Assembly (NCBI GenBank): GCA_963707025.1 | Contig: CAVPOM010000014.1 | Coordinates: 128,001 to 192,000 of the forward strand | Direction: 5' to 3' | DNA: 64,000 bases | From: an uncultured Verrucomicrobiae bacterium | GTDB taxonomy: Bacteria > Verrucomicrobiota > Verrucomicrobiia > Limisphaerales > Palsa-1400 | Shown: piece by piece, positions 937 to 24,919 of the stretch | How the letters are laid out: every line of letters starts with the position of its first letter | Position numbering within the stretch: the stretch's first letter is position 1 | Program-made: the position numbers and the translations under genes | Notes under the pieces: model-generated | Seen by the model: the letters and a program-made list of their open reading frames with translations, nothing else | Told to the model about the DNA's origin: nothing | Databases searched by the model: none

Positions 937-3900
937 TTAGAAAGGGGTTGTCAATTTAAAGAAATGGAGGCTGTTGGTCGGCACGGTGACGGAGTACTGG
1001 CCGTTGACGATGCTGGGCGCGGGATTGGTCACCGTCACCCACACAATCGGCGGAGTGAGGTTGGTCGCCCCTTGCAGCATGTAATTGGTGGCCGCGACGG
1101 GCCAGGTGAATGTGTTGGCCATCGCGCTGGAAACAATGGAAAGCGTTGGCGCCGGATTGATGACAATCTTGAACGAGGCGAAGTTGTTCAACTTGATGGG
1201 ATCATACGCTAAGGACCCCACCACCACCGTGTCCAGAACGGTGCCCCCGCCGGCGTTGGTGGCCATGGCGGTCAGGGTCAGCGTGGCATCTGCGAACGGG
1301 GCCAATGAGCCGACGCTCCAAGTATTCGTCCCGCCGGCACTGGCCACTGAGCCCAAGGACGCCGAATGGCCCGTCAGAACCAGCCCCTCCGGCAGGTAAT
1401 TGGTCACCGTCGTCCCGAACGCCAAGGAAGGACCGTTGTTGGTCGCGACCAGGGTGATGGTGGCGAAATCGCCCGCCGTCACCGGGTTGGGGGTGGCACT
1501 GATCGTCACTCCCAGATCGGCGCTCGGCTGGCTGATGCTGCTCACCACGTTGGTCACGTTGTTCGTGCTCGGTTCAAGCTGGCCGGAGATGGCGATGAAG
1601 GTGTTTGTCTCCAGAGCGGCCGCGTTGGGCACCACCGCCACCTCGAAGGAGACGCCGGTCCCGACCGCCAGGGCGTTGACGGCAAAGGTCAATACTCCGT
1701 TGTTGTTGACGACCGTGCCGGGGAAGTTGTTGCTGAGATAGGTCAGCCCGGCCGGCAGGATATTGGTGATGAACACGCCGCTGGCCCCGGCCGGCCCGTA
1801 GTTGGTCAGCCCGACCGTGTAGATCAGATTGTTGCCCACCGTGGCCAGGACGGGCGCCGCCGTCACGCTCAATTCCAAATCCGTGTAGGAAGGCACCGGA
1901 TTGCCCGTGCTCAAATTCAAGCTCCAGCCGTTGCTGATCCACCCGTAATCCAGCGTCTTGGTGTCGGCCACGTAAAGCGACCAGGTGCCGTCGGCGGCGG
2001 TGCCGGAGAAGACGGACAAGTTGGTGGGATACGGATTGGCCGGCGCCGGGGGTGGCATGACGGGCAGGATGCCCCAGTTGTTTCCCACAAACAAGGTCAC
2101 GTTGGAGTAAGTGCCGTTGATATCAATATACTCATTGATATACGGGGTCGGCTTGTTCGTGGCGGATATATTATTGACAAGCTGGTTGCTCGACAGGTAG
2201 GCAGGGGCCGCATCGTCAAAGGTCAGGCTGAAGTTGGTCACCCCCAACCCGTTGCCGCCGCCCACCGCGTTCATCAACAACACATTGGTGACGGGAGAAA
2301 CCAGAACCATCATAATATCGCTCGGCAGGCTGTGCGTCAGGTTGCTGAAGGCGACGGTGACTTTGCCCACGTTCCCCGCCAGGCCCCCCACGGGGATGAC
2401 CGATGGATATGGACCGGCCGGCCCTTCCGCCGGAGTCGGCACGAAATTGGCGGCGGGAACGGCAATCAGATTGGTATTGGCGAAGGTGGTCGTGGTCGTG
2501 CCCAGGGTGAATGAAAACACTGCCGTCGCCAGATCGCGCGGGCCGTCCTGCAGTTGGAAAACCGCGGCAATGACCTGGTTGTTGCTGCCGTTGGCGGTGA
2601 AGGTGAACGGCTGGGAAACCGCATGGCCGCCCTGAATCAGCACGCCGTAGTTGTGCGAACTGCCCACTCCGGGGGTCACCGCGCTGCTGGCCTGCAAGGT
2701 GGCGACCAGGTTGGTGGTATTGCCGCCGGAAATGCACCGCAAACCAAAGTCCACCGTGACCGTTTCCCCCGGATCAATCAGCCCGTTGGTCGGCTGGAAA
2801 CTTTCATACACCAGCGCCGTGCCCGCCGCAATCACATAAGACCCGTCGCCCTCCTGGATGGTGAGAACTGCCGTGCTGGGCGGGCTGAGCACCGGCGGGA
2901 TCGCCCCGGCTCCCTGCGGATTGCTCAGGCTCAAGATCACGGTGTGGTCCGCCGTGATGATATGATCGTCAATGACATCAACCGCGAAACTCTGCGAAGT
3001 GACTCCGGGGGCAAAGTTCAGCGTTCCATTGGTGGCAAAGTAATTGACCCCCGCCTTTCCGGTTCCATCCGCGGTGGCAAACTGCACGCTCGTGTTCGTA
3101 TTGGTCACCCCGCTCACCACCACCGTGATCTGCACCTGCACCCCTTTTTCGTTCACCGCATAAGCCGCGCTGGAAAAGCTCATCGCCGTGACGGTGTTGG
3201 TGATGCTGATCACCGCGTTGGAGGGTGACAGCAGGTAGATATTAGTGGAGATGGTGGAAACTGGATTGGCCAGGGCGAAATTGAATGTTTTGGTGTTCTC
3301 CAAAACCCCGGGATTGAGAATAGTCAGCGTCACGTTGGTGCTGGCCTGCCCGTCCGCAAAGGTCAGCACCCCGTTGGTCGCCGCGTAATCCACCCCCGCC
3401 ACCGCCGTCCCGTCGCTGGTCGCATAACTGACCAACACGGTCCCGGTATTGACGTTCAACCGGTTGACCGTCACCACCACGTTGCTGCCATTCTCTCCAG
3501 TGATGTAGGCATTGGTCGCCAGTGCAAATCCGGTCACATCCCCAATGATCGTCACCACCGACGCCCCCGGACTGCCAATTTGCGTTCCGGGGCTGGCATT
3601 GGTCAGCACCACCTCGAAGCTTTCCGGCGCGTCCACCGTCTTTTGCTGGAAAATCGCTATCGGCACGGTCTCGAAGGTCTGTCCCGGCGCAAAGGTCAGG
3701 ACCCCGTTGGTCGGCCCGTAATTCAGCCCGGGAATGGCATAGCCGTTGGTCCCCGCCGCATTGGTCGGCGACACCGTGGTGTAGCCCACCGAGATGGTGC
3801 CATTGGTCGGACCGTTGCGCAGGATGCTGACCGTGACCGAACCGGAGGCTTCGCTCACGAAATAGTCCGCGCTGGCCATCGTAAAGTCCTGGATGTCGTT

Positions 3901-6900
3901 GACAATGGTCAGGGTTTCAACACTCGACCCGCCTATCGTCGTCCCAACCGGGTCGGACAAGGTCAAAAAGACCGTCGAATCCGGAACGGCGTTGGTGAGC
4001 TGATAGATGGGGATGGTGATGCTCTGGGAGGTTTGGCCGTCGGAAAAGAAATTCGTTTGCACGACCTGGCCGTAGTTGACCCCCGCCGTCGCGGTGCCGT
4101 TGCTGGTGGCAAACACGACGGAAATCGGCCCCGTCACACCATTGGTCCGAATCAAGTTGATCACCGCGTTCGAGGCCGCCTCGCCCACCGTATAGCTGGG
4201 CTGGTCGAAGCTGACGACTCCGGGGCCGGCATAGACCGTGGCAATGGTCAGCGTGGCCGAGCTGGGCGTCGTCAGAAAACCGTTGGTCGGATTGGTCAGC
4301 TCCAAATCCACCGTTTGATCGCTCAACATACTCGTGTTGTTGGACAAGCCTATCACCCACAGGTTGGTCACCACCCCCGGAGGAAAGACCAGCACGTTGG
4401 AGGCGGGGAAATAGTTCACCCCCGGCGTCGCGGTGCCGTTGGTTCCGGTAAAGGCCGTCACCGTCAGCGTGGTGATGGGATTGCCGATGCGCACCACGGG
4501 AATGACCGCCGCCCCGCCGGCCGCGTTTTCCGACTGCCGGTAGCTGGCCGAGGAGAAAGCCACCGCCGAGTTGGCGTTGGTGATGATCACCTGGGCCGAG
4601 GACTGGAACCCCAGCGACACCCCGAGCGGCTCGGACAAATTCACGTTGAAATACCGGTTGCCGCCCACCACCCCGTTGTTAATCACCGGCACCAGCACGT
4701 TGGTGAACGTCTCCCCGATGGGAAAGCTCACCGTGCTGCTCACCGCCGTGTAATCCACCCCGTTCAGCGCCGTCCCGTCCGCCGTTGTGAACAGCGCGCT
4801 CACCACCGGGTTGCCGGCGACGCCCGCCGTCCCCCCCGTCCGCTCCACCGTGATGAGCGCATTGGTCTGATTCTGCACCGCCCCATAGAGCGGTCCGGTG
4901 AAACTCAGCGAGCCGGGGCCGAAAATCTCCCCGCCAAACAGCCTCGTGAAGTTGTTCTGCACATACCCGCCAAAACTGGTAAACGAACCGCCCACGTTGA
5001 TTTCGTCATTGGCCTGGATGGCAATGGCATGAACGTAGCCGTTGGCCCCCGACCCAAAGTTGATCGTCGGATCCACCGACCCGTCGGCATTGAGCCGCGT
5101 CAGGCCATTGCGCGTCACTCCGCTGGCCCGGGTAAACTGGCCGCCCGCCAGAATCCTCTCCTGCGAATCTATCGCCAGCGTCTCCACCGTATTGTTGGCC
5201 CCCACCCCCACGTTGAAACTCTGGTCCAGGCTCCCGTCGGTGTTCAGCCGGGCGATATGATTCAAGCTCGCGCCGTTGACGTTGGTGAACACTCCCCCAA
5301 CGACGATCCGCCCGTCGGGTTGGATGGCGATGGCATGGACCGAACCCAGCACCGTGCCCCCGGTGTCCGCGTTGAAGGTCAGGTCAACCGAGCCATCCAG
5401 ATTCAAACGCACCAGGTGGTGATAATTCCCGTTGTTGAACGAGATGAAATCACCGCCCACAATCACCTTGCCGTCCGCCTGCACCGCCAGGGCATGCACC
5501 GCCCCGTTGGTGCTGGTCACGCCATTGCCGGGGTTAAAGTTCAAATCCACCTGGCCCGCGCTGGTCAGCCGCGCCACCCCGCTCCGTTGCACCCCGTTGA
5601 AATTGGCGAAACCGCCGCCGATCAGATAAGCCCGCACCGGCGGCCCGTTGTTCGTCGCCGGCGCCAGAAAGGTTTCCACCACCGCGTAGATCGTGTTGTC
5701 CGCGCCCGCCCCGGGGTTAAACGTCGTGTCCAGCGAGCCGTCCAGATTCAAGCGGGCGATGTTGTTGAACGGAATGTTGTCAAAGTGCGCAAAGTTGCCC
5801 GCCACCATGATCGCGCCATTGGTCTGGCCTGCATCCGGCGTTTGGCTCAGCACCACCTGCACCAGCCCGTCCGACCCCGCCTGCAGGTAGAGAAAACCCG
5901 TGTCCACCGATCCGTCCGCGTTCAGCCGCGCCACCTCGGATAATGGAATCTGGTTGGCAAAGGTGAAAAGCCCCCCCGCCAACAGCTTCCCGTCCGGCTG
6001 CAGGCTCAACGAGTTGACCACATTGTTGAAGCCGCTGCCCGTCAGCAGCGTCGTGTCCACCGAGCCGGGAGACCCCGTCACCAGTTGATTGTCCAGGATC
6101 GTGATCGTCCCGCTCTTGGGAAACGGATTGCCATTGGTGATGGCCGCCGGATTGGGGTTGGAAAGCGTCAAGCTGATCACCCGGTTGGCCGCGTTGGTTT
6201 CCGACGGCGTATAAAGAATCGGAACCGTAAAGGTCTGGCTCGTCACCCCGTCGCCAAAGATCAGCGTGCCGTTGGTCGCCCCATAGTTGGTGCCGGCCAG
6301 CGCCGGCTGGAAGGGCGGGATCAGCCCGCTGCCATTGGCGGTGGCATAATTGACCGAGATGGTTCCCACCGTTCCCCCGCGGCGCGTCACCGTCACGATG
6401 GCCTGCCCCGCGTTCTGCAACACATTGATGTTGGTCGGCGCAAAATTGAGCTGGCCGTAAAAATCATCGTCCACTATCGTCACCGGCACGTTGGTCGGGT
6501 AGAGCAGCACCAGGCTGTTGGTCGGCGCACCCGTGCCGTAGTTGGCCACCACCGCATTGGTCAGATACACATTGAAGGTCTTGGCTCCTTCCACCACATG
6601 ATCCTCGATGGTCGGGATGCTGACCGTCTTGACCGCCACGTCCCCGTTGGTCCAGGTCAGCAAATTGGAAACCGTCGTATAGTTGATCCCGTTGCTGCCC
6701 GTCCCGTCCGTCGTCAGGCATTGCACCGACAACAGCCCCAGCGCCCCGGCCGTGCGCTCGATGCCCACCTGCGCCGTCCCGCCCTTGGTCACGCTGTAAC
6801 CCGCGCTGGTGAAACTCAAGTGGCCGGGCTGAAAATGGTCGTCCACTATCGTCACCACCGAGTTGGTCACCAGGATGGGCGGATTATTCGTGTCGAATCC

Positions 6901-9900
6901 CGCCCCGTGCGTCGGGCTGAACAAAATCACGTTGAAAAACTTGTTCGATTGCAGGGTCGAGTGATTAAAAATCTGCACCTGGAAACTGGCGCTCACCGCC
7001 TCATCCGCAAAGTTCAGGTTGGTCGTGATCGGGTTATAATCCACCCCCGCCACGGCCGTCTGCACGTTGGGATCGTTGGTGTAACCGTTCTGCGTCTTGC
7101 ACCCGACGGAAACCGAGCCGTAACTGCCGTTGGTGCGCAGAACCGTGATGGTGACGAATCCCCCGCTCTCCGTCACGTTGTAATTGGTCGCGCTGAATCC
7201 CAGGGTGCCGGCCGGGAAGTTGTCGTTAATGATTTCCAGGCCGGCCAGGGTCAAGGCCGGCGCTGGCAGCATCGGGATGTTCATGCCGCCCAGATTGAAG
7301 GTGTCGTAATCGTTGATGGACAGCAGCGACAGGTCGGCAAAGAGGTTCTGCTGCGCCGCCTTGTTGTCGAAAATCGTCAGTTGCACCGGGACCACCCCGC
7401 CACCGAGGATGGTGACATTATTGGGGCCATAGGCGCCGTCCGCCGTGTCATAGCCGTAACCCGGCGTGGTAATGGGGCCAGCGGCCTCGCTCACGACGCT
7501 CAGGAAGGAATGGGGATACTGCGCAATCCCGTTGTTGATCAACCCAAAGTCAATATTACCGGCCGCCCCAGGACCGGGCGGGAGCGTATTGGTGGCCATC
7601 ACGATGTTGACCGGGCCTAAGGCCCCGTTGGTGCGGACCACGCTGATGAAGGTGCTGGGGGCCGTGTCGTTGGCGCTGTAGGTGCTCTGGGTGAAGCCGA
7701 CATTCCCGGGATAATTCGGAGGATTCCCCGCGACCGGGCCGGGGTTGGGATTGACTGGGGCGCCGGTGATGGCGTTGAACGGCAGGACATTGGTGCCTTG
7801 CGGACCCAGCGTGGGCGGACCGATGACGCTGGCCACGTTCCACCGGACCCTCACATCGTCGCGCGTAAAACCACCCCCCACCCGCACGAAACTGCCCCCG
7901 ATCAGGACGTTCTGATTGAGCGGCTGGTAGGCCATGGCATTGACATAATTGGGTGAGTTATACCCCGCCGGAAGCGGCAGGTCGTTCGGGTTGACCGCAT
8001 TGACATTATAATAGTGGTTGATCACACCGGCGAATTGATTGTAGGCGACATCCATGAAACTCGTATCCACCCACCCGTTGGGCAACAGGCGCGCGTAGCC
8101 GACCCGCCGCACCGACCCAACACTGGTAAACTGCCCCCCCACCAATATCTTCTGGTCAGGCTGGATGGACACGCAATACACCGGGCCGTTGGCCCCGGCG
8201 CCCGGACTGAACGAATTGTCCACCGAGCCGTCGTAATTCAGCCGCGCCATGCAAGGCAGATTGGTCAGGTGGACCTGCGAAAAACTGCCCCCGATCACAA
8301 TCTGGTTCCCCGGCGACTGCACCGCCACGCCGTAAACCGTTCCGTTGACGTCGGTGCCCGGATTGAAGTTGGTGTCCAGGGCGCCGCTGGGCGTCAAACG
8401 CGCCAAGCCGGGCCAGTTGGTGCCTTCGACCGTGGAGAAGGCCCCGCCAATCACCACATCCCCCAATGAGTCGGACGCCACCGCCCGGACACTGACTCCG
8501 TCAAAGTTTTCGTCCGTTCCCGCTCCCGGATCAAAGCTGGTATCCAGCGAGCCGGCGTGCGGTCCGCTGCCAAAAAGCCGCGCCACATGCACCCGGTTGG
8601 TGGAATCGTAGGTCAGGAAGTCGCCGCCGATCAGCACATTGCCGTTGGGATCCAGCGCCAGCGCCCACACCGTCCCGTCCGCCCCGCGTCCGGTGTTGAA
8701 GCTCGTGTCCAGCGAGCCGTCATTATTCAGCCGGGCCACATGGTTGGCCGTCACGCCGTTGAAGGAGGTGAACTTGCCTCCGATCAGGATTCTCCCCACG
8801 GCGTCAATCGCCACGGCGGAGACGAAATCATTGGGGCCGATGATGCCAATGCCCGAATCAAATGTAAAATCCGGCAGCCCGTTGGTCAGCGTCCGCACCA
8901 GATAATTAAAGTTGGTCGCATCATAAGAGACAAAATGGCCGCCAATCACCGCTTTACCGTCCTGTTGCACCGCCACCGCCAGCACCTCCTGGTCCGCCCC
9001 CGGCAGCGAGTTGAACGGAGGATAGGAATTGGCCACATTCTCCATGTTCCAACTCCGGTCCGCCGCCCCTCCCGGCTGTTGCTGGGTGTGAACTCCATGG
9101 ATGTCGGTCAAATTGGCGTCATACTGGATGATGACGCTGCAGGAGCCGACATTGCCGATGATGTCCCGGGGGTCCCCCCCGCTCGGTTTGGACAGGGTAA
9201 TCTGGATTTCCCGGTCAAATTCCACCGCGCCATTATTGTTGACAGGGATGCTGATGCCCACCCCCACTCCCCCCTGGCCGCCGCCAGGCACCGGCGGGAT
9301 GGTGATCGAGCCGGACCCGGTTGGGCCGTAAGGCGCGCGGAAATCGTCGTTTTCCAGGGTGGCAAAATTGCCCGGAGGTTGCGGCGCCGGAAGTATTTTC
9401 TCGCCGATGGCAAAATCAGCCCCCAGCTCCTGCGTGGTGGGCAGGGCCCATGCCTGGGGATTGCCAGTCAAGCCGTTGACCGTGTAGTTGAGGGTGGTGG
9501 AGTGGTCACCCGGGCCCCAGCGCCAAACAGTCACGCCGACAGCCGGGATGGGGAAGTCGTTGGTGGTTTGTTGCGCCGATTTGGGAAAGCGGTAAACCCG
9601 GTTTTCGAAGTTGATGGCATCGTAGTTGGTGCAAGTGTCCGGCAGTCCGAGAACCGCTCCCGGTTGAATGTTGTAGAAATCATGGATGGACATCACGGCC
9701 ACACCGGTGTTCCCCGCGCGAAAACCCCCGCCAGCCATGGCGCCGGTGCCATCTGGAGCCACTTCGTTGGGCGCCAGCGTCGGCACCGCCACATCCAGGC
9801 TCTCCAGCGGATCCAGGCGCGGATTGGCCAGCGACAGAATCACCCGCCGCGGTATGCCCGGAGCGACGAGGTTCCCCAGTATATCAGGCCAATCCGGCCC

Positions 9901-11187: not shown

Positions 11188-11271
11188 AAAATCGCACTCT
11201 CATCTCTGTCTTTCTCGCTCTTGACTCAATGCCCCTCCCGCCCGCCGCCTCTTCTCTTTCTCCTTGGGGAT

Positions 11272-11667: not shown

Positions 11668-11708
11668 CGATTCAATGGCTCTTCATTCTTCATCCCTGTT
11701 CCCCCGGC

Positions 11709-14700
11709 TTAATGTCCCTGCAACAACACCCCGCCGCTCTGGTTGGTCCCCAGGAAAAACCCGCGCGCCACTCCCTGCTCCTGCAACACCACTCCCGCCC
11801 CCGTCGCTTTCTTGCCCGTGCCGGGCGCGACATACTGGAAGGTAAAACCTCCGGTGCTCGCGTTGATGGTCAGCGTCAAACTCTTGTCCGCCGATACATA
11901 GTTCTCCAACCCGCTCGCGCTCACCGCCTCGATGACCTCCAGCGGCAGATTCCCCCCGCTCAGGGTGACGGTCGGGCTGTTCAACGCCAGCCCGTTGGTT
12001 TTTTGAAACGCCGCCGAATATGTGCTGCCCAGCAATACCGCGCTGCTGGCAAAGCCGTTGCTATAATAAGTTCCCGGCCCAGCCTGCCTGGCCCACGCCA
12101 CCGTTCCGCTCAACGTCCCGTTGGTCGTGTCAAAGCCCACCCAGCCCAGCACCGGCTGCGGGACTCCCGCCGGGGTGAAGTACAGCGGCCATTGCCCGCC
12201 TTTCGATACGGGAACCGCCTGGCTGAAACTCACGTTATCGGCCAGTGTGCCGGCCGCCGTCAAATTGCCCAGCGCGTCCACCTTCACCGTGCCGTAACCG
12301 TCGCCGCCGGGGCTGAGGGCGGCGTTCGGATTGCCGGGCAACACCAGCGTGTAACTCCCGGCTTGCGGCGCCGGCTTGGCCGCCGTCCACTCCGGCGCAT
12401 GGTAAGCCGTCAAGGTGGCGTCAAACTCCGCGTTGCTCACGCTGCCCGTGGCCAGGCCGGGCGGCTCCGAATTGTCCACCTCCAGGGCCACGGCCAGGAC
12501 CTTGCCCCCATTGGTGGCCGACAGCCTGGCCACACCGGCCATGTTGAACTGGGAACTGAATGGATAATTGGTCGTCCCGAAAAGCAATTTGCCGGAGAAA
12601 ACTCCGTTGCTTTTCAAGGTCAGCGTCACGGAGCCGGAGTTGTTGCCGCCCACGACCGCGTTGGTCGGATAGAACAGCCCGTTATACACTCCCGCCAGCC
12701 CGATGAACGGGTTGGTGATGAAATTGGCTGTCAAAAATGCAAAAACATTGGTCGGCGTTCGAAACGAAATGGTCTGCTGGCTGGAAACCACCGCGCCGGA
12801 CCAGCCCAGAAACAGCCAGCCGGCCGCGGGCATCGCGGTCAGGGTGTTGCTTTGCCCAACAGTCACCCCTTTCTGCGTCAAATTCGGCGTGATGATCCCC
12901 TGCCCAGTCGTCCAAAGGACAAAGGTTTGCCCGCTCACGCCATTGGCCACCGGCAGCGTCTCCGTCCCAGTCACCAGCGTCGGGCACGGGATCGGCCCGA
13001 CGCTCGGGTTGTTCAACGGATACGGGCTGTTGACATTCAGCACGCCATCGCCGGCCGAGGAAATGCTCGCGCTGGATCGCAGCGCCGCATTCATCAGACA
13101 GTTGCTCCCCCCCAGATAGGCCACATTGGTCGTGCTGTTCGGCCCGGCGAACTGCGGCACCCACACGATGTTGGAATAAACCTGGTGCAACTTCCCCGGG
13201 TCCACGTTGGCGTTGGCAAAATAAATCGTGAAATTCGGATCCACCAGCAGCCCGTTGTGGTAATCGCTGAACGACAAGTCCTGCAAATCCAGATAATCCA
13301 CATACAACGCGTTCTTCTTCCCCGCCGCGCTGAACTGCAAGGTGGCATCGGTCGTCCGATCCAATATCAAATGCCCGATCACCACGTTGTTGAAAAACCC
13401 GGCCACTGTCGCCCCAAGGTCCTGTCCCGCCCACACATGTTGCACCCTCTGGCCGGGCACGGCCGCGATGGTCTTGAGCTGCGTCCCAAACAAGTCCCCG
13501 CTCGCCGGCTTGACCGGCAGCGAGAATCCGCCCGTCACCTGCCAGACGTTGGTGGCATAGGCGTTGGTCGAAGCCGTGTTGGGAAGGTGGTCGGTCAACT
13601 CGCCGCTGGCATAAAGGACCAACTGCCCATAGCCGGACTGCCCGGCCAGAATGGTGGAATTGGTCACCTGGATGGAGGTGGAAGTCAGGTTCACGTTGCC
13701 GTCGGCCTGCAGGGTGTTGGTCAGAACCCAGTCCTCCCGCCCCCAGGTAATCGGTCATGGCGTTGAGCGTAATCGAACCGTTGTTGGTGGATAGGATGCG
13801 GCCGCCATTGGCAAAAATCTGCGATTGCCACTCGATCGTTCCCGAATTGACTGCACCCAGGTTGGTCGTGGTCAGCAGCGGGGTGTTCAGCCTGGTCGGA
13901 TTGACCGTGCTGGCGCCGAGCACGAAGCCGACATCAATATAGTCGTCCGCCGTGAGCGAACCGCCGCTCCCGATGAGCAAATTCTTCAAGCCCGGCAGAT
14001 TGGTCGTCCGCAGTATGCTGGCGGCCCCGGTTAAATGAACGCTGCCATTGAGGGTCAGATTGCTCGCCTGAAAAAGCGCTCTCCCCATCACCCGCAAAGG
14101 GTCATCCACCACCACATTGCTCCCGCGCAAGGCCACGTTCAAGCCCGTCGTCTGGAAGGTGTCCCGCAAGTCCTGGTCCACGATCAGCACATGATATACA
14201 AAAGTGTTGGTCACCCGGTTGGTGGTGCCCGTGCCGGTGTTGGTCTGGAGATTGGACCAATCGGCCGTATAGGCCGCAATATCCCCGCGCAGCCGGTGGA
14301 AGGTGCCCGGGAAAAGATTGCTCACCAGCAGCGAGCTGCGCGGATTGCCCAAATCCACGTTCATGTTGCCAAAATCAACCGCCGCCGGCCCGCCCAAAAA
14401 GTTGGTCGCATTCATCTTGACAAAGCCGTTCGCCCGCATCCTCAGATTCGTCACGTTATTGGTCTTGCTGGCGTTGATTTCAATCCGCCCAGGCTCGTTG
14501 GTGATGTCCGGCATCCCCGTCTGGCTGTGCCCCAGAATAGTGGCCGTGTAATCGAACAACCCATCCGCCTGTTCCGGATTCCGGCCCACCTGCGCGCAAT
14601 AGAACGAATTGGTCATCGGCACGGTGATGCTTGAAAATATCCCCGCCGTATAAAGCACCGTCGGATCAAAAATGTCGTCGGCGGCAACTCCCGCCAGCCA

Positions 14701-16095
14701 CTCCGCCGGCTGGTTGCGCGTGATCTCAAAACCAAGCGGTTTGGCATAGCCCGGCCCCGCATAAACGCTGTTGGTGGCGTAAAAACCCGGCACCTCAATC
14801 GCCGAGTTGTCCAAAAAATAAATGGAATTGGTCACCGTCTGGCCGGTCATCACGTCCAGCACCGGCGCGCTAAACTTGATCATCGGCTCAAGCTGGAACT
14901 CGTCGCCCGGATAGATGGTCGGCTCATCCAGCAAAATATTGGTCCCTAACCCACCGTAGCGCACCTCCACGCTGATGTTCGTATCGGCAAAGGCGGTGTT
15001 GACAAAGACGATGGTGTAGTAATTGGTTTCTGTGGCGTTGGCGTTGGTGGACGAAAGGATACCTTCCGAATAGACAAACGACTGAAAATTCGGCGCGACC
15101 GGAGGCGTCGTCACGGTCGGAGTGTAGCCTTTTATCGGTATGAACGGCGTGCTCATCGGGAAAATCTCACCAGGAGGAACCCAGGTTCCAGGGGTGGCCA
15201 CAATTTCCCCTTCCACGGTTTCGTTTCGCGTGCCTCCTTGCCAGCTTCCGTTATTGCCGATAAACGGGAACAACGTCTCCACTACCGGCGGCAGTCCTTC
15301 TAAAGGCAGCTCCAGGGTGGTTTGCACCTCCTCCACGTCACCCAGCTCGCTGGCCCCGTTGGTCAAGCTCCAGTAGATGTCATACACTTCCGCCGGGGGG
15401 GAAAAGAACCCATAAATCGCCAGGGCGCCGGTTGAGTACCCCACCGTAACTCCCCGCGCCGCGGTCGCGTTGGTGTCCAGTTCCGAAATGATCCCGGCCT
15501 CCAAACCGCCGCCGCTCAGATTGATGCTCGCCCCGTTCAACGTCAGCACCCCCAAGTCCCCCACCGACATCAGCCCGCTATTGCTGATGTTCGTGGCCGA
15601 TACCTCAATGGCCGATGGAAACGGCGTGTTGGTGCCCGGACCGCCCGCGATCAGCAAGGGGATGGTTCCACCCACCCACAGACGCGCCCCTCCGCTGCCC
15701 GGCGGTTGCGAAGGCACCGTAAACGCGTAGCTCCCCCCCAACGCAAAAAAAGCCACCGGCGGCGCGTCCAACCCGGTTATCATCCCGCGGTTATTGAAGC
15801 TCGAGGCGGCATGCACGCTCTTGGCTGTCTCGGTGTTGAAGGTGAACCCCGGCTGGGCCACCATGATGGCCGTGTTGGTGAAATACAACGTGTCCCGCGT
15901 TTGAAACGGCACGCTGTCCACGATGTTGGATCCAATCAAATTGAAATTGACAACGTTTTCATTGATAAACACGACCGCATCAATGTTGGTCCGCGCCGTC
16001 AGCGTCACGTCGTTGATAAAAACCGCGTCCGGCTGCGCCGCCGCCCACCGCCCCATGCCCGCCGCCAGCATTATCAATAAGGTAATTCGTTTCAT
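11709..16095 (-). CDS. Large secreted surface protein (~1460 aa) with an InlB-B-like repeat and a ~330-aa beta-rich C-terminal domain; one frameshift near 13728-13745
   Basis: Start MKRITLLIMLAAGMGRWAAAQP at 16095. ORF 12682..16185 loses its composition after ..DYLGAGGL, while the adjacent frame reads VLTNTLQADGNVNLTS into ORF 11709..13694; removing one G joins them. TLTAMPAAGWLFLGWSG..LTANF repeat precedes the C-terminal domain. Confidence 0.8.
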
Positions 16096-16111
16096 ATCTT
16101 TGCAATCAATG

Positions 16112-17701
16112 CTAGGGGGATTTGCCTCCGGCCGGGCGCGCCCGCAACGCCGCCGCGCCCCCGCCGCCGCCGGCGGCGGCGCCACCGCCGCCCGTCACGG
16201 TCCCTCCCCCTGTGCCTGTGCCCGCCGTCGTGTTGGTGGAGATGATCGGATTGAAGGGCGAGTTGATGGCGGACCCTGGCGGCGGGGTTAACTCAAGGTC
16301 TATCAACCCAGCCAGGCTCGTGCCCAAGGGAAACGCGATCGGCGCGTTGGTGCTGCCGTCATACGACCCAAACTGAAAATAGGGATACAGAAAAAATCCC
16401 GAGCTGGACAAAAACCCCGGGTTCTCATTGTAGTAGATCGGCCCCACATTGTTGAACGTCACCAGCATGCCCCGGGCTGATGACCTCCGAAACCGTTGAG
16501 AGTGGATTGTTGGCCGCCACCGGCGGCGCGATAAACGTATTGCTTCGCGTGTAGGGCTGGTCCTCCGATGCCGCCGGCGTGCCCAGCAGGTTGGCCGAGG
16601 CAAATATGATATCCGGCTGCGTGTTCGTCCGCCAGACCGTCAGGGTCGTCTGCCTGGAATTGGTCAGGATCGGTATGTTGTAGTGAATGACATTGGTGGG
16701 GAAGGCGTAGCCCACCGCCGAATCGTAGGCCACTTTCACAAACATGATCTTCTCCACCCCCCCACCGTGCCGGTCCAGGTGTTATCCAGCACATTGGTCG
16801 CCCCGACGGGGGACCAGGCGGTCGTCAGACCCCCCACCCAGGCGTTGGACGGCATGGCTTCATTGTTGTAATTGTTATGGCGATACAGGTAACGCAAACC
16901 CCCAAAATCATCCCGCGTCAGGCCCAGGTAGAATCCCCCAAGTTGCTGCGCTTCCGCCGTCGCCACCGCGGACGTGGTGGTGGAGATCCCGTTTCCTCCC
17001 GGATCCACACTGGCTTCTTCATACGCATCCGCGATGTCAGGTGTGACACCTATCGTGCAATTATCTATAATATTGTAGGCGTACAGGGTGCCGTTGACGT
17101 AGGTGCTCGGATTCCAGGTGATCGGGTCGTAATTGCGCACCGCCACCTGGTAAGTCGCAATGCACCCGGTGACGACTTGCCGCCCGAACAAATCAAACAC
17201 ATGGGTTTCTCCCAGCAGGCCCATGTGCTCGATCATGATCTGCAGCACGGTGGATTTCAGGTCCAGCATGCTCAGGGCGCGCGCCGTGTAATTGATCTGC
17301 TGGTTGCCCTCCGTCACAAACTCCGACAGATCCGCGCTCGCCCCGGAGACCGTCGGCAATCGGTTCAGGATGGCAAAGGCCGCGTCCACCGCCTTGACCC
17401 CTTCGGTGCCGTAAAAATTCAGAAACGTGTAATCGTAGCCGTAAGTAATGATGGCCGAATTGAGCCGCGAGCCTTCCCCGTAGTTCTTCGGCCCCCCCTG
17501 TTCAACGTAAGGCACATTCCCGGGAACGCTCAGATCTTGATTCAGGCCGCTGACGTTCGGAGAGTAATAATACCGGGTCCCATACGAAAGGCCGGCCGTT
17601 TGAAAAGTTTCCAATGGTCCCCAGATGGTGAAGGCCCAAGCCTGCGGCGCCACGGCCATCCCCAAAAACAGCCCCGACAAAGTTCTCAGATTTCGCAACA
17701 T
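16112..17701 (-). CDS. Secreted matrixin-like protein lacking the canonical zinc motif, Gly/Thr/Ala-rich tail; two frameshifts (~16760, ~16472)
   Basis: Signal peptide ..APQAWA|F. ORFs 16736..17701, 16425..16757 and 16112..16603 join by adding one base at the C7 run 16757-16763 (TVGGVEKIMF) and removing one at C4 16470-16473 (ISPGMLVTFNN). LTRDDFGGLRYLY resembles the matrixin C-terminal helix. Confidence 0.7.
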
Positions 17702-17736
17702 ATAAGCAACGGGTTAAAAGTTCGACTGCCTCATGG

Positions 17737-19192: not shown

Positions 19193-19228
19193 TCCTCTCC
19201 TCCATTGCCGGAGAGGGTCGGGGTGGGG
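19193..19228. repeat. Degenerate intergenic REP-like palindrome
   Basis: CCTCTCC-TCCATTGCC-GGAGAGG followed by GTCGGGGTGGGG; same architecture as the terminal unit of the 11.3-kb array. Confidence 0.7.
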
Positions 19229-19259
19229 AAGCCCGCCAGATTGGCCTGCCCCGGCCGCA

Positions 19260-20258: not shown

Positions 20259-20266
20259 TCAGCAGG

Positions 20267-23107
20267 TCAGGGCGCTTTAGCCCCCACCGGTTGAGGCGGG
20301 ACGGAATTCTTGGCGAAAGGCATCTCCTCATCGGTATGCAATTTATTACCCGCTGGATCAATAATTGTCGCCGTGACGAACACCATCAAATTCTGCTTCT
20401 GACTGTAGGAGTACTCGCTTTGGAACAACCGGCCCAGCAGCGGCAAATCGCCCAGCACCGGTATCTTGTCTTTGAACTTGGTGATGTTTTCCGCGATCAA
20501 CCCGCCCAACATGACCGTCTGGCCGTCCCAGACATTGACACTGGTGACGACCTGGCGGACGCGGTAATGCGGCAGCGGCAGCACCGCCGTCAGCGGCACA
20601 CCGATGGAAGAACCGGCGACCGATTGGGCCTGGATCAGAAACGGGCCGGGAGGGTCGTAACCGACGAATTCGGTCAAGGTGGGAATGAGAACCATCGAGA
20701 TGGAATAGCCGTCCGATTCAATCGAGGGCAGTACGTCCAAAGCCGGTCCCGCCGTGAATGGACTGGTGCCAGGGATCGAGGAGGAGGCGACTGCCGAAGA
20801 GGTGCTCAGCCCGCCGGCTCCGGTGCTCGCTCCAAAGCCGCCGGCTCCGGTTGAGGACACGCCGGAAGTGGTGACGATATCTATAATGTCACTCACCTGC
20901 ACATGCGCCTGCCGCCCGCTCTCGGTCGTCACCCGCGGAGCGGACAGGATATCCGCTCCGTCCCGTTGTTCAATCGCCTGAATGGCCAGGCGAAATTGCG
21001 GGTCGGTCAAAATGCCGGTAATGGTGCCCAAGGTGGTCAGCCCTGGCCCGGACGGGGAGCCGGGGGGAGCGGTGCGCAAGGCCGTGCCGGTCAGACTGGA
21101 ATCTGAAGTGGACGGCGGAATCTGCAGGGGGATGGCACTCCCACTGGCACTGGTGGTGGAGAAACCGGTGGGACCCGCCCCAGGGAAGTTGCCCGATGGA
21201 TTGGCCAGCGTCGGCGGCGATGAGTACGAAGGCGCCGTGCCCGCCTCGGCCCCGATGGCGCCCTTGTTCACCGTAAAGTTTCCCAGATTCCATTGAAAGC
21301 CCAACCCTTTGGCGTCGTTTTGTGTCACCGAGGCAAATTTGGTGTCAATCTGCACTTCCGGCGGGATTTTGTTCAGCAGTTGGATGACCCGTTCCACCAT
21401 GTCCAAGTCCTGCGTCGTCGCCCGCACCAGCATATCCCCGGTCCGCTCATTGAAGAAAACGAAGGTGCCATTAGTGTTCAAATTAATGCCCATGGTCCGC
21501 AAGAAGTATTGGCTGACCAGAGCGTTGTCATTAAGCGTCAAGTTGGTCACTGTGATATAAGGAAGGAATGAGGGGGTGACCTGCAGATAAGTGGCAGTCC
21601 CCTGCCCTCCGCCCCCGCCGAACCCGCCGCCGCCGCCAATCCCGCCAGCCCCGCCAATCCCACCGCCCCCAATCCCACCGCCCCCAATTCCACCACCGCC
21701 AAAGCCACCGCCCCCAAACCCGCCGCCGCCGCCAATGCCGCCGCCGCCAAAACCACCACCGCCAATGCCACCGCTTGAGCCGCCGATGCCGCCTCCGCCC
21801 ACGCCGCCCCCCGCGGAATTGGCCGTGCCGGAAATGCCTGTCACAGACACTCCGATTAATCCCTGCACAAAAGTATCCGGGTTCACATGGAACAACCGCG
21901 TTTCCAGCGCCGCCGCTTCAACCGGCTTCACAAAGAACCACACCGCGTAATCCTCCACTGAGTAGCTCAGGCCATTGGGACTGTCGGACAATTGACAAAT
22001 CGCATCCAACGCCTCAAGCAAGGTCACATTGTTGAGCGGCGGATTGATTTTGATCTGGATGGTGGACGCTTCGACAAACGCCGCCGGCGGCGCCGTCAAA
22101 TCAACGGCCAGCGCGGCGGCCCCGGAACTGGGGCTGGGGCGCGGATTGAACATAAAATTGATGCCGACGTTCTCCAGGTCGTTGGAGATGGACCGCCTCT
22201 TCAGGCTCTTGAGCACTTCGCTCAACGGCATGCCGGTTTCCAAGGTGGCTTCGTCGGGCAGATTCTCCAGTTTGATCTCCTGCAGTTTGCGCATGATGGT
22301 CGAACGGCCCGGACTGGTGTGAATCAGAGTGCTTTTGGCGTAACTGTTGGGCACCGGCAACTCCTGGGCCTTGGTCGAAAGCAGCCAGGTCCGCTCCACC
22401 TGTTCCAGTTCGGTTTTGGTGTCCCGCTCCCGGTTGCGCGCGTCATTGATGTAACGGGCTTCCTTGAGCAAATCCAAATAGTAAGGCGCCGCCGCGTTGG
22501 ACGGATCCAGGGCCAGCGCCTGTAAGAGCACTTTCTCCGCCTCGTCCAGCCTTCCCATCTCGTAAAGCAGTCTGCCGTTCTGCACCAGGGTGGCCACCTG
22601 CGTGTTGGTCCTATCGAACTGCGGAATCATCTTGAGCACGTCCGGGCTGGGAACCCGGCCCTCCTGCGCGGCGGTGTTCAAGTCTATTTCCTTGCGCAGG
22701 ATGCGCAGCCGTTCATTGCCGGGATCATACTTCAGGGCGGCGTTGACCTGGTCGCTGGCCGCGGCCATCTCCCCCAGCTTCATGTATTGCCGGGCCAGCA
22801 ATTCCCGTGTCTCAGCGTGGCCGGCCAGCGCCTCCAACTTCTCCCCGTCCACTTTGAGATTGCCCACCTCCACGTACGGAATGTTGGTCACGGCATCCTG
22901 GTAAAGTTTGGCGGCGCTGGCGATCTCGTTGCGCTTCCGGGCCGCGTCCGCCGCCCGCAGGTCCCTTTCCATGTCGCCGGTCGCGGCCTGGCGGCGCACC
23001 GCTTCATCCTGCGCCAGTTGAATGGCGTCCTGGCTGTTGGTCTGGGCCTGCGCGGAGAAGGCCAGAAAGAAAACGAGGCTGATGGTGATTTGGGCTGCTG
23101 GTCTCAT
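20267..23107 (-). CDS. Secretin (GspD/PilQ family, Amuc_1098-like) with N-terminal TPR region and Gly-rich loop
   Basis: Signal peptide MRPAAQITISLVFFLAFSAQAQ at 23107; TPR-like GRLLYEMGRLDEAEKVLLQALALDPSN; secretin motifs ILSAPRVTTESGRQA, DGQTVMLGGLI, KIPVLGDLPLLGRLF, NLMVFVTATII. Confidence 0.93.
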   Translation of the reverse strand: MRPAAQITISLVFFLAFSAQAQTNSQDAIQLAQDEAVRRQAATGDMERDLRAADAARKRNEIASAAKLYQDAVTNIPYVEVGNLKVDGEKLEALAGHAETRELLARQYMKLGEMAAASDQVNAALKYDPGNERLRILRKEIDLNTAAQEGRVPSPDVLKMIPQFDRTNTQVATLVQNGRLLYEMGRLDEAEKVLLQALALDPSNAAAPYYLDLLKEARYINDARNRERDTKTELEQVERTWLLSTKAQELPVPNSYAKSTLIHTSPGRSTIMRKLQEIKLENLPDEATLETGMPLSEVLKSLKRRSISNDLENVGINFMFNPRPSPSSGAAALAVDLTAPPAAFVEASTIQIKINPPLNNVTLLEALDAICQLSDSPNGLSYSVEDYAVWFFVKPVEAAALETRLFHVNPDTFVQGLIGVSVTGISGTANSAGGGVGGGGIGGSSGGIGGGGFGGGGIGGGGGFGGGGFGGGGIGGGGIGGGGIGGAGGIGGGGGFGGGGGQGTATYLQVTPSFLPYITVTNLTLNDNALVSQYFLRTMGINLNTNGTFVFFNERTGDMLVRATTQDLDMVERVIQLLNKIPPEVQIDTKFASVTQNDAKGLGFQWNLGNFTVNKGAIGAEAGTAPSYSSPPTLANPSGNFPGAGPTGFSTTSASGSAIPLQIPPSTSDSSLTGTALRTAPPGSPSGPGLTTLGTITGILTDPQFRLAIQAIEQRDGADILSAPRVTTESGRQAHVQVSDIIDIVTTSGVSSTGAGGFGASTGAGGLSTSSAVASSSIPGTSPFTAGPALDVLPSIESDGYSISMVLIPTLTEFVGYDPPGPFLIQAQSVAGSSIGVPLTAVLPLPHYRVRQVVTSVNVWDGQTVMLGGLIAENITKFKDKIPVLGDLPLLGRLFQSEYSYSQKQNLMVFVTATIIDPAGNKLHTDEEMPFAKNSVPPQPVGAKAP

Positions 23108-23141
23108 GGTGTCTTGTCTCTTTGGATTTTTCTCCCAGGGC

Positions 23142-23912
23142 TTATGGCCCGCCGTTCCATTCTCTTTGGCTCTTTTGGGCCGTCCTGGTGTTCTGCACTG
23201 TAACGGTATTGCTGGTAATGGCAATGATTTTCCACTCTTCCTGCGAAAGCTGCAGCGTATCGTTGACGTGCTTCTTGTTGAACACGTTGGTGCTGTCGGA
23301 CGCATTATATTTCATGCTCGCTTCATACAGTTCCACCCGCTGGTACGGCTCCGTGGCCGTCACCAAGTTGGTTTGTCCGGTTTCGGGTATCAGCACTTGG
23401 AGCTTGGCTGGCGTTTCCTGAGCAGCATTGGTGCCAACGATCACACAAGGATAGGGCTTGTTTTTGGGGCCCTTGTCGTTGTAGGCGCCAAACCATCTCA
23501 CCTCCGGCCCCATCGGATGTTTGGCGACCATCTGAAAGGCCTCCCCCGCTTGTTTGTCCAGCCGGATGGTATAATAAAGCGGCACGATCTCGGTCACCGT
23601 CAGCGCCATGGGGCCTTCCCTGTTCATTTTGAACAGCCGCCCGTCATGGCTCATTTTCCAAGTCACCGGATTAAACAGGTTATGATCGTCGCTCAAACTG
23701 AACTCGGGCACATCCTTCAAGCCTTTGAGCGCGTTGCGCAATGCCGTCAGATCCACCGCGACCCACGGCTTGGCCGGCGGCGGGGTCCCGAAGGTGGTGG
23801 GGCTCTTGGCCTCCCTCACCGCCGCGAACAACCAAAAGGCTGCCGCCCCAAGCCCCGCCAGGACGGCGCTCAAAATGATCTTCTCAAAATGTCTCTTCAA
23901 AAATTGCATCAC
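23142..23912 (-). CDS. Single-pass membrane protein of the secretin cluster (Amuc_1099-like by position)
   Basis: N-terminal FLKRHFEKIIL plus TM helix; HNLFNP motif; 4-bp overlap with the upstream gene; lies between PilO-like gene and secretin. Confidence 0.7.
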   Translation of the reverse strand: MMQFLKRHFEKIILSAVLAGLGAAAFWLFAAVREAKSPTTFGTPPPAKPWVAVDLTALRNALKGLKDVPEFSLSDDHNLFNPVTWKMSHDGRLFKMNREGPMALTVTEIVPLYYTIRLDKQAGEAFQMVAKHPMGPEVRWFGAYNDKGPKNKPYPCVIVGTNAAQETPAKLQVLIPETGQTNLVTATEPYQRVELYEASMKYNASDSTNVFNKKHVNDTLQLSQEEWKIIAITSNTVTVQNTRTAQKSQREWNGGP

Positions 23913-24919
23913 TTGAATTTGATCACCTCCACCGACAGCGTGATGTAAAGCAACTGCTCCCGCTCCACCGTCCTCGGCCCGCCGGCGACCGGCGCGGCCG
24001 CCAGCTTGTCCTTCCAGGCCTCCATCGCTCTCTCATAGGCCATGGCCTTGAGATTATAGAGTCTTACTTTCGCATCGTATTGGGCCGGGCTTTCGCGAAA
24101 CCCCCGGACGGGCGGGTCGCCCGGCGGCGTGGGCTGGCCCGGCAGCGTCACGCCCGGCGCGTACCCGGGCTGATCCAGCGTTTTTGGACCCGCCGGCCGG
24201 ACCACGATATTTTTGACAACAAAACAATTGCTCGACCGGGCCAGCCCCGCCAGGACGGCGGCCAGTTCCCGCGTGAAGCTCTTAAACTCCATCTTGTACG
24301 GGGTCGCGGTGCCAAAGGCCGTGGGGGCAATGTGCGTGTTCAGAAGATCGTTGGCCGTCGCAATCAGATCGTTGGTGGAGTTGACGGGCACGCGCCGCAT
24401 GCTCACCAGGGAATTGATTTTGGCGCTGTAAAGTATGTCGCAAAGCGTCTTGATTTCCGCCAATTGCTGCATCCACAAGGGGATGTTTTCCGCCGGCGGA
24501 TTGAGTTTGCCCCGCTGATCGGTGAACCCAAAGGCAAAATCATCGGGCACTCCCACCTCCGCGTTGGTCGCCTTGGTTCTCAAATCAAAAATCGTGTTCT
24601 CCAGATATTCGGAGAATCCCTTGGCATCCTCCTTGGGCGGGATGGGGAAGGGGGCGAAGGTTTGGCGCAACTGATCCACCAACCCCTTGACCTGGCCCTG
24701 GTCTTCCCGGGCATGCTGGATGTTGTCGTCCGACGGGTAAGGCACCTTTGGATTGTTGCCCAAGGCCTCGTACTGGCTGGTATAATCCGCAAAATCCTTG
24801 TTCACCGCCGCATTATTGCTCAAATCCACCCAAAAAAACACATACGCGCAGTAACCCGTCAATATCAAACCCGCCGCCAAGCCGAGAGCAAAAAACAAAT
24901 TTCGTTTAATCCAGGCCAT
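23909..24919 (-). CDS. Amuc_1100-like / PilO-like pilus-associated protein
   Basis: Start MAWIKRNLFF 5 bp after the pilM stop; N-terminal TM, coiled coil, FAFGF..Q, LAAVLAGL..S..CFVVKNI; position matches the Amuc_1098-1101 gene order. Confidence 0.75.
   Translation of the reverse strand: MAWIKRNLFFALGLAAGLILTGYCAYVFFWVDLSNNAAVNKDFADYTSQYEALGNNPKVPYPSDDNIQHAREDQGQVKGLVDQLRQTFAPFPIPPKEDAKGFSEYLENTIFDLRTKATNAEVGVPDDFAFGFTDQRGKLNPPAENIPLWMQQLAEIKTLCDILYSAKINSLVSMRRVPVNSTNDLIATANDLLNTHIAPTAFGTATPYKMEFKSFTRELAAVLAGLARSSNCFVVKNIVVRPAGPKTLDQPGYAPGVTLPGQPTPPGDPPVRGFRESPAQYDAKVRLYNLKAMAYERAMEAWKDKLAAAPVAGGPRTVEREQLLYITLSVEVIKFK

Follow-up and report, generated by a model that had tools for sequence, protein, structure and literature searches.

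Bacteroidota possess an O-glycosylation system that reads the short sequon D-(S/T)-X in periplasmic, inner-membrane and lipoprotein targets, prefers a small or hydrophobic residue after the site, and builds a core glycan suggested to start with O-linked mannose or another hexose (available portion of PMC10897501). In humans, TMEM260 (PF11028/DUF2723; PDB 9RQL) is an O-mannosyltransferase, and the sites named in the available portions of two sources are all Thr (PMC10214176; bioRxiv 10.64898/2026.03.17.711096). The same portion of the latter describes action on extended peptides, the signature P-x5-P-x3-G-P-x2-G/A-G-G-x2-T/S in IPT domains, and four essential residues, D52, H67, R264 and Y267 (bioRxiv 10.64898/2026.03.17.711096). 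In literature searches, the one paper found to name DUF2723 mentions only the existence of distant bacterial homologues, and no description of a T-N glycosylation signal was found. PglL/PilO-type O-oligosaccharyltransferases (Wzy_C family) have their targets in Ala/Pro-rich linkers, and we know of no fixed dipeptide that they require. Nor do we know of an enzyme identified as the initiator of Bacteroidota O-glycosylation.

Here we examine a different short motif, the dipeptide Thr-Asn (TN), starting from 64,000 nt of a Limisphaerales (Palsa-1400) genome (GCA_963707025.1, CAVPOM010000014.1, positions 128,001-192,000), hereafter the window. Its source genome, G000, is 88% complete. A sequence-only reading had noticed that TN recurs in exported proteins of the window and had proposed a selected sequon, perhaps glycosylated by neighbouring enzymes. 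The relevant features are:

937..11187, minus strand: giant exported protein of 3416 aa with Calx-beta domains, a DUF5122 propeller and DUF11 domains; putative substrate
1153..1890, minus strand: its two DUF11 domains, used in a cross-phylum column test
2788..4200, minus strand: its four Calx-beta domains, modelled (pLDDT 90.9)
10060..10428, minus strand: the stretch VPTNDL...MSTNIT singled out by the sequence-only reading, residues 254-376 (123 aa)
11709..16092, minus strand: exported protein of ~1450 aa, split by one frameshift near 13750
16112..17701, minus strand: "pseudo-matrixin" (a name from the same reading), in three frames, the first without Pfam match
20267..23107, minus strand: secretin, Amuc_1098-like
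23142..24916, minus strand: Amuc_1099-like and Amuc_1100-like proteins, the former presumably so, as its name rests on gene position
24924..26804, minus strand: PilM_2 protein (PilM_2 domain, residues 10-349)
29632..30384, minus strand: EpsI-like DUF3485 protein, adjoining an exosortase
31731..35161, minus strand: two multi-pass membrane proteins, GT-C-like by shape and without Pfam match (genes at 33665 and 31734)
51177..53123, plus strand: Wzy_C (O-antigen ligase-like) protein (protein at 51255), a weak rival candidate

The giant protein carries 88 TN and 22 NT, compared with 34.5 TN expected; the highest value in 10,000 shuffles was 57, and shuffling within 10-residue blocks gave 36.7. In its highlighted stretch, the 10 TN and 3 NT claimed were found again on recounting. 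Recurrence in what had been called the 1460-aa protein also holds, here over two frames: 23 TN vs 7.0 expected in frame 13750-16092 and 12 vs 4.9 in frame 11712-13694 (35 vs 11.9 in sum); in relatives G253 and G178, both parts lie in a single frame. EpsI has the three TN reported (0.5 expected), and the cytoplasmic PilM domain has none, as stated, the single TN of that protein being at residue 609 (1.0 expected). For the pseudo-matrixin the claim stands in part, as six TN occur over the three frames but the first frame is not enriched (1 vs 2.2). In the Amuc_1099-like (3 vs 1.2) and Amuc_1100-like proteins (2 vs 1.1; together 5 vs 2.3) and in the island protein (4 vs 2.5) TN is present as described, in numbers too small to inform alone; the same is true of the secretin (5 vs 3.3) and of the secreted VIT protein, which indeed lacks TN (0 vs 1.6).

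The excess extends over the whole genome: no other dipeptide of the proteome is as strongly over-represented as TN, and in 764 proteins with a signal peptide it occurs 1816 times vs 934 expected (observed/expected, O/E, 1.95). About two thirds of the signal-peptide proteins (476/717) carry it. The order of the residues is strict: in the same 764 proteins NT stands at 0.83, SN at 0.97 and T.N at 0.95. N-x-S/T, which had been described as common, is not enriched there (N.T 1.07, N.S 0.95) nor in the giant protein (43 vs 54.5 expected), and its frequency reflects composition only. In TN-rich genomes DT (0.77), DS (0.81), TD (0.57) and TG (0.69) all fall below expectation. Hence N-x-S/T, T-x-N, S-N and D-S/T were ruled out as the selected motif. 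Local composition was ruled out by the 10-residue block shuffles (1816 vs 1002), and exported proteins poor in Thr and Asn are still rich in TN (39 vs 23 expected). Because Thr codon usage before Asn equals that of Ala before Asn and of Thr before Lys, the excess is not driven by DNA; nor is it driven by fold, since in Ala/Pro linkers of signal-peptide proteins it reaches 4.6-fold (85 vs 18.4). Counting TN by DNA pattern as a genome-wide proxy was abandoned, as contrasts were weak in G000.

The residue that follows matters. When it is A, L, W, Y, I or G the excess is 2.2-2.8, and it drops to 1.1-1.5 with C, E, K, P, R, N, H or D; Pro behind Asn abolishes most of it (TNP, O/E 1.21). This context holds no long pattern of the TMEM260 type. 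TN gains consist mainly of Asn in place of D, G, Q or S behind Thr.

The excess is confined to extracytoplasmic segments. It is missing from 160 P-loop proteins (96 vs 104.5 expected), and in 13 membrane kinases it is seen after the transmembrane helix (26 vs 12.1) and not before it (4 vs 5.3); a histidine-kinase topology test comprised three proteins only. In 148 YfhO-family homologues, cytoplasmic segments have 19 TN vs 17.6 expected and periplasmic segments 553 vs 231, 124 of the 553 coming from one conserved site. The excess is also missing from Tat-type proteins: 25 with a strict Tat motif have 13 TN vs 20.6 expected, and 41 identified by regular expression only have 27 vs 33.9, compared with 341 vs 182.8 in 189 Sec-type proteins matched to the latter in composition. 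As Tat substrates are predicted to be exported folded, this suggests that the motif is read on the unfolded chain. Some Sec-dependent classes depart from the rule and show no excess, among them 12 RND pumps (8 vs 16.5) and 34 prepilin-like proteins (36 vs 29.7). The distribution over extracytoplasmic proteins and domains resembles that of Bacteroidota O-glycosylation targets, a likeness that concerns the motif and not the modification.

A roughly twofold TN excess is common to most sampled Limisphaerales. When status was scored on large exported proteins, 42 of 50 genomes of the order had the excess, five lacked it and three were unclear; outside the order it was found in 2/17 genomes, with G285 and G101 as TN-rich outsiders. 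The genomes compared belong to related lineages and are not independent of one another. The 20-kb PilM loci from outside the order (O/E 0-1.7) have little power and were left out of the calls, except for two long proteins of G048 and G054. Pooled TN-poor genomes have an O/E of 0.76, and secretins of 11 class and phylum genomes, taken from the set scanned for PF11028, have 17 TN vs 24.5. One Pedobacter locus, from a scan of named genomes, has TN at expectation (43 vs 42.3); its Bacteroidota sequon is not enriched either (18 vs 20), so enrichment is no general mark of sequons.

Homologous domains of other lineages do not share the bias. Distant DUF11 proteins gave a pooled O/E of 1.02 (112 proteins) and, in 149 more, a median of 1.07; the two highest TN outliers of the blind comparison proved to belong to clusters in which members are named Limisphaerales or Verrucomicrobiota. 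In DUF11, Thr precedes an invariant Asn in 73% of cases, compared with 42-44% in distant homologues, and the Thr column also accepts S, R, A and K. A structure search for a solved DUF11 domain gave no match, and no column of the DUF5122 blades reached at least 10% TN. In the Calx-beta model, reading positions by hand on the DSSP string placed 14/16 complete TN sites in loops or at strand ends. At the commonest Calx-beta site, solved CALX domains have mostly charged residues in the aligned places of both Thr and Asn (R-K, A-R), and exposure therefore does not favour one over the other. Because TN sites come and go on loops, at strand ends and in Ala/Pro linkers, selection appears to act on their density rather than on position. 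Altogether, the proposal that the order bias marks a selected T-N motif, specific to lineage and compartment, is well supported and withstood the sequence-level attempts at refutation.

We propose that T-N is recognized by a general system for protein O-glycosylation: while the still unfolded chain exits the Sec channel, a TMEM260-like enzyme of the inner membrane would attach a sugar to its Thr, with mannose the likely one; more speculatively, a GT-C of the YfhO family, found order-wide, might extend the glycan. Both candidates are encoded elsewhere in G000:

G000:C5:279907-283740, outside the window: TMEM260-like (PF11028/DUF2723) GT-C, ~1280 aa
G000:C6:179066-181945: YfhO/AftD-like GT-C (GT-C fold plus YfhO domain)

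We give this reading, with the DUF2723 protein as the transferase, a probability of roughly 0.42. Its parts differ in strength: that the T-N site is modified at all is highly probable, that the group is a glycan is probable, and Thr is slightly favoured as the acceptor because its frequency before the invariant DUF11 Asn rises from 42-44% to 73%.

The candidate scores 58.5 bits against PF11028 (cut-off 24.2) and matches human TMEM260 (9RQL) with E 4.7e-12, or 9.4e-37 when a 13-sequence profile is used. To judge from these alignments, it shares with TMEM260 a GT-C module, a Rossmann-like region, a TPR tail (TPR_14 match at 1174-1216; the profile matches TPR proteins) and equivalents of the donor-binding residues: D46, H61, R325 and Y328, invariant in 13/13 sequences, align with human D52, H67, R264 and Y267. 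It differs in its length of ~1280 aa and in its putative catalytic loop, where the human catalytic base D441 aligns with invariant T611, the next residue being invariant D612; R355 is also one residue out of register. Unlike the long Pro/Gly signature of TMEM260, the substrate proposed here is a dipeptide that occurs in hundreds of proteins.

PF11028 is present in 47/47 genomes of the order and in 39/39 TN-rich genomes tested, and none of the 10 scored genomes that lack it is TN-rich. Its presence in seven TN-poor genomes too (five in the order; in G155 a weak second type only) indicates that it is not sufficient for the excess. It exceeds the cut-off in 33/46 further class and phylum genomes, a count made for PF11028 alone, and in 1/14 control genomes, that of B. 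thetaiotaomicron. In two outgroup genomes, G285 and G005, the DUF2723 gene lies directly behind a GT2 that resembles polyprenyl-phosphate sugar synthases, below family cut-offs. A quick DUF2723 tree tracks lineage, with copies of TN-rich outgroups apart from those of the order; the long branches of the TN-poor genomes G184, G158 and G151/G227 are indistinguishable from the lineage rate. A plasmid search for DUF2723 returned one match, in Parabacteroides.

The same O-linked modification of Thr might be initiated by another membrane transferase, which we consider unlikely. The window Wzy_C protein would suit the Ala/Pro-rich linkers typical of PglL targets, and close orthologues occur in 24/25 TN-rich genomes of the order; however, its distribution fits poorly, since TN-rich G265 (96% complete, 7 contigs) yielded no copy and homologues occur in 12/16 outgroup genomes, many of them TN-poor, and at E<=1e-4 it matches PF04932 only, with no match to PF11846 or PF15864, which we take to be the PglL-specific domains beside Wzy_C. 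T-N sites also differ from PglL/PilO sites in that they lie in folded domains too and exclude Ser. The YfhO-family protein (PF09586 in precomputed annotation, no Pfam match at 1e-6) occurs in 45/47 genomes of the order and weakly in G285, G101, G023, G008 and G343, but was not found in TN-rich G159, its gene often lies among glycan-biosynthesis genes, and its model (pLDDT 85.5) is nearest AftD, a glycan modifier. The neighbouring GT-Cs at 33665 and 31734 (5/25 and 7/25 TN-rich genomes of the order; 5/49 and 9/49 genomes) are too patchy to be the general enzyme, so the idea that enzymes next to the substrates modify them found no support. Patchy as well are a TMTC-like family (14/49, also in TN-poor outgroups) and a second YfhO-like family (15/49). 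PMT_2 has 11 matches in G000.

Comparably unlikely is that Asn is the acceptor, in a form of N-linked glycosylation by a non-STT3 GT-C in which the hydroxy residue would sit at -1 and not at +2. The effect of Pro after Asn, as in N-x-S/T, the gains of Asn behind Thr, the resemblance of the YfhO-family model to AglB (E 1.2e-4) and the divergence of the DUF2723 loop from the human one fit this view, and the proposed modification of exported chains on the outward-facing side of the membrane recalls STT3, PglB and AglB. Against it, N-x-S/T is not enriched, STT3 (PF02516) has no match in G000 whereas the control was positive in four archaea, and the preference in DUF11 is for Thr before a structural Asn, on which a glycan would likely disturb the fold. 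We give similarly little weight to a reader other than a glycosyltransferase (phosphoglycerol, phosphoethanolamine or acyl modification, or binding by an export factor or a chaperone of the periplasm): anything that reads unfolded chains in the periplasm would fit the patterns of compartment, Tat route and lineage, and none of the candidate glycosyltransferases follows TN exactly, but a short polar-plus-hydrophobic motif in lipoproteins, membrane loops and linkers parallels the Bacteroidota sequon as given in the available text (PMC10897501). Least probable is that there is no reader, and that T-N is a physically favoured strand-end or turn pair built up with an Asn/Thr-rich surface. Loops and strand ends do hold most of the modelled sites, two DUF11 columns carry Thr-Asn as a universal structural pair (42% in distant homologues), and a D-to-N change in DUF11 that accompanies loss of a Lys/Asp/Asn triad may need no sequon; yet the excess is strongest in disordered linkers, survives in T/N-poor proteins and block shuffles, and is absent from homologous domains elsewhere and from TN-poor genomes.

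O-glycosylation of Thr through the DUF2723 protein would resemble the Bacteroidota system, as far as the available description goes, in its short motif, its many extracytoplasmic proteins and the small or hydrophobic residue that follows. It would differ in that the polar partner comes after the hydroxy residue and not before, Ser is not enriched and the phylum is another; non-enrichment of D-(S/T)-X here does not exclude its use. If proteome-scale, co-translocational O-mannosylation at Thr-Asn by this family does take place in Limisphaerales, a tentative proposition, it would give the bacterial homologues of TMEM260 their first substrate class, bring about two thirds of signal-peptide proteins within the reach of the enzyme, and make DUF2723 the prime suspect for initiating Bacteroidota O-glycosylation. 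In the bolder form, with Asn as acceptor, it would be a new rule of N-glycosylation without STT3. Glycoengineering could profit from an acceptor tag of two residues. The TN excess also marks unnamed proteins as belonging to the lineage, and could point to the hosts of phages whose exported proteins carry it. A sequon that ranks first among the dipeptide biases of entire proteomes suggests that a large order of bacteria has a major surface modification that has gone unstudied.

A sequence-only reading of the window had counted 10 Thr-Asn (TN) and 3 Asn-Thr (NT) dipeptides in one stretch of the giant exported protein (3416 aa; window 937-11187, reverse strand), and this count is borne out over 123 aa (residues 254-376). 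The whole protein holds 88 TN and 22 NT vs 34.5 expected, and the maximum over 10,000 shuffles was 57. The small proteins cited in the same reading, including a VIT protein offered as a counter-example, have just 0.5-3 expected TN each, too few to decide singly. Other features of this part of the window, which also carries an Amuc_1098/1100-like pilus locus, are as follows:

Window 11248-11631: intergenic tandem array between two large exported genes (period 59, 6.5 copies, 95% matches).
Window 13700-13790: G-rich run where one frameshift splits an exported protein of about 1450 aa; in relatives G253 and G178 a single frame covers both parts, and the shift is either an assembly error or a recent mutation.
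Window 16112-17701: 'pseudo-matrixin' broken into three reading frames; one shift lies close to 16470, the other close to 16740 at a run of seven G.

The source genome (G000; 6.96 Mb, 88% complete; window at C14:128001-192000) was placed in Limisphaerales from the names carried by homologues of one of its proteins, 'Limisphaerales bacterium' or 'Verrucomicrobiota bacterium'. Its genes were called with a home-made dicodon model, which gave 5300 genes (77% coding). The 4835 proteins of at least 80 aa were classed by hydrophobicity rules as signal-peptide (764), cytoplasmic (3065), multi-pass (368) or other (638), and the expected dipeptide counts of each protein were derived from that protein's composition. 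In each of the four classes TN had the highest z-score of any dipeptide. Observed and expected counts were 1816 vs 934 for signal-peptide proteins, 606 vs 363 for multi-pass proteins, 1500 vs 830 for the others, and 6670 vs 3982 for all proteins together. The excess is confirmed and reaches far beyond the window. The observed/expected ratio (O/E) of 1.48 in the 'cytoplasmic' class must be read with the roughness of these classes in mind, as exported proteins with miscalled starts contaminate it; after filtering to 2197 proteins the ratio was 1.23, and 205 motif-defined proteins gave 0.93.

The motif is strict. Variants in residue, order or spacing show no excess (SN 0.97, NT 0.83, TD 0.88, T.N 0.95). 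N-x-S/T, which had also seemed common, does not behave as a selected motif (N.T 1.07, N.S 0.95), and its overlap with TN showed no surplus (248 of 1813 after TN vs 1449 of 11205 for other Asn). For the residue that follows TN, O/E was 2.2-2.8 for A, L, W, Y, I and G, and 1.1-1.5 for C, E, K, P, R, N, H and D.

Could the excess be a by-product of composition, of DNA sequence or of protein fold? The proposal that the bias goes beyond T/N-rich composition holds: shuffling 10-residue blocks keeps just 1002 of the 1816 sites, and exported proteins poor in T and N are still enriched (39 vs 23). A cause at the DNA level was rejected, as Thr codon use before Asn equals that of Ala codons before Asn and of Thr codons before Lys. 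Among exported proteins, Ala/Pro-rich linkers show the largest excess (85 vs 18.4), with A-T-N-A-P as the typical context; for linkers from the impure cytoplasmic class the count was 45 vs 23.6. In 656 Calx-beta domains from TN-rich genomes, TN is spread over nine columns (10-19% each), vs 0-2 of 16-25 domains per column in TN-poor genomes, and 14 of 16 sites lie in loops or strand ends of a four-domain model read by hand. TN stayed below 10% at every column of DUF5122 blades. The excess is neither a composition, nor a DNA, nor a fold effect.

The excess tracks the export route. P-loop proteins lack it (96 vs 104.5), and 13 membrane Ser/Thr kinases have 4 vs 5.3 TN inside and 26 vs 12.1 past the membrane helix. 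Among 148 YfhO-family homologues with model-derived topology, cytoplasmic parts have 19 vs 17.6 and periplasmic parts 553 vs 231, one conserved site supplying 124 of the 553. Lipoprotein-like proteins are enriched (54 vs 24.9). Proteins with a Tat motif are exported folded; the strict ones (25 of 43 candidates) have 13 vs 20.6, and all 43 pooled 38 vs 32.5. In 189 Sec-type proteins matched in T and N content the figure was 341 vs 182.8. RND pumps (8 vs 16.5) and prepilin-like proteins (36 vs 29.7) speak, however, against a simple export rule.

The excess also follows lineage. Scoring of DUF5122/Calx-beta giants or LamG proteins, as large exported proteins, in 67 other genomes classed 42 Limisphaerales as TN-rich (O/E 1.43-3.33), 5 as TN-poor (0.56-0.91; G151, G227, G155, G158 and G184, 4 of the 5 from LamG proteins only) and 3 as unclear; outside the order, 2 were TN-rich, 11 TN-poor, 3 unclear and 1 too small. 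Because kin genomes are not independent, these counts are patterns and not P values. The two TN-rich genomes outside the order, G285 (2.79) and G101 (1.92; loci of the pair: L062, L095 ff., L254 ff.), possibly reflect independent gain, an ancestral state or gene transfer. Homologous domains agree with a lineage-specific bias: 112 DUF11 proteins from distant lineages, with labels including Planctomycetia, Methanobrevibacter, Streptomyces and Flavobacterium, pool at 1.02, vs 222 TN for 87.4 expected in 8 close ones (at least 44% identity). Another 149 DUF11 proteins had a median of 1.07, and 15 reached 1.8; of 10 looked up, the top two cluster with Limisphaerales and Verrucomicrobiota names, and the other 8 clusters carry no label.

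DUF11 bears on the acceptor residue. Column 27 is Asn in 97-100% of domains everywhere, and is preceded by Thr in 73% of 112 domains from TN-rich genomes vs 42-44% elsewhere (1047 and 3328 domains), the other residues there including S, R, A and K. This preference for Thr before a structural Asn would fit Thr as the acceptor. At column 40, 84-89% of domains elsewhere have Asp and 63% of those from TN-rich genomes have Asn, so that TN stands there in 56 domains (of 112) vs 3 (of 1039); this column is weaker evidence because the change coincides with loss of Lys6 and part of Asn94. In Limisphaerales DUF11 (window 1153-1890 and loci of the order) Lys6 is lost, Asp40 mostly and Asn94 partly, vs 77%, 84% and 85% conservation elsewhere. 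These residues are probably an isopeptide triad, and the change is probably a loss of the intramolecular isopeptide bond. Calx-beta sites do not discriminate between Thr and Asn.

The sequence-only reading is partly supported: a lineage- and compartment-specific motif is well supported, while the neighbouring enzymes that it proposed fail or fit poorly. Two neighbouring GT-C-like genes, 33665 and 31734, were rejected as the general enzyme (5 and 7 of 25 TN-rich genomes of the order). The O-antigen ligase-like Wzy_C gene (window 51177-53123) occurs in 24 of the 25, was not found in G265, and has homologues in 12 of 16 outgroups. TMTC-like and second YfhO-like families were discarded for patchy occurrence, and no STT3 was found in the 88% complete source genome. 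Further features of the window are:

Window 27084-50741: one polysaccharide/exosortase cluster, with genes for a sugar epimerase, a priming sugar transferase, EpsI-like, exosortase, WecG-type and other glycosyltransferase-like proteins.
Window 59870-62624 (right end): transposase-like ORFs, apparently IS elements judging by their sequence; the 409-aa one recurs at L144:7865.

Two GT-C families are order-wide. The YfhO family, often among glycan genes, is present in 45 of 47 genomes and was not found in TN-rich G159; its modelled fold is closest to AftD, then to AglB and ArnT. DUF2723 (PF11028, TMEM260-like) is present in 47 of 47 genomes of the order and 7 of 23 outgroups, in all 39 TN-rich genomes tested and also in 7 TN-poor ones; no TN-rich genome is among the 10 scored genomes that lack it. 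It also occurs in 33 of 46 further genomes counted for presence alone. From this profile DUF2723 is therefore a candidate that looks necessary, not sufficient. The source genome has four matches:

C5:279907-283740: 1277 aa.
Adjoining gene (L142:10539-14608): split paralogue, 321 + 1038 aa; the split may be real because G253:C23, from the same family, likewise shows a 353-codon frame.
Third and fourth matches: second type, order-wide, about 950-1000 aa with a TPR tail (L143:5390-8368, L144:4476-7424), seemingly without the active-site acidic motif and possibly a non-catalytic partner.

The 1277-aa protein matches human TMEM260 and keeps the equivalents of D52, H67, R264 and Y267, each essential in the human enzyme according to bioRxiv 10.64898/2026.03.17.711096. 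In the bacterial family, an invariant Thr occupies the position of the human catalytic base D441, and the next residue is an invariant Asp. In G285 and G005 the DUF2723 gene lies directly behind a GT2 gene with a resemblance, under the family cut-offs, to polyprenyl-phosphate sugar synthases; in G005 this is the C-terminal domain of a 1092-codon frame (L328:10815-14090). In G008 a DUF2723 gene adjoins a YfhO-family gene (L329:279-6118).

The literature search, with subscription journals mostly outside its coverage, found no report of a T-N motif or of protein glycosylation in Limisphaerales. The system proposed here would not belong with STT3; its mode of action would resemble that of the Bacteroidota D-(S/T)-X system (PMC10897501), yet its sequon differs and it would not be a member. 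Most likely, a GT-C enzyme at the outer face of the inner membrane would glycosylate Thr in T-N, the substrate being chains not yet folded after Sec export; TMEM260 modifies extended peptides, according to the same bioRxiv preprint. All of this chemistry is inferred. Selection would have scattered T-N sites across the exposed loops and linkers of exported proteins.
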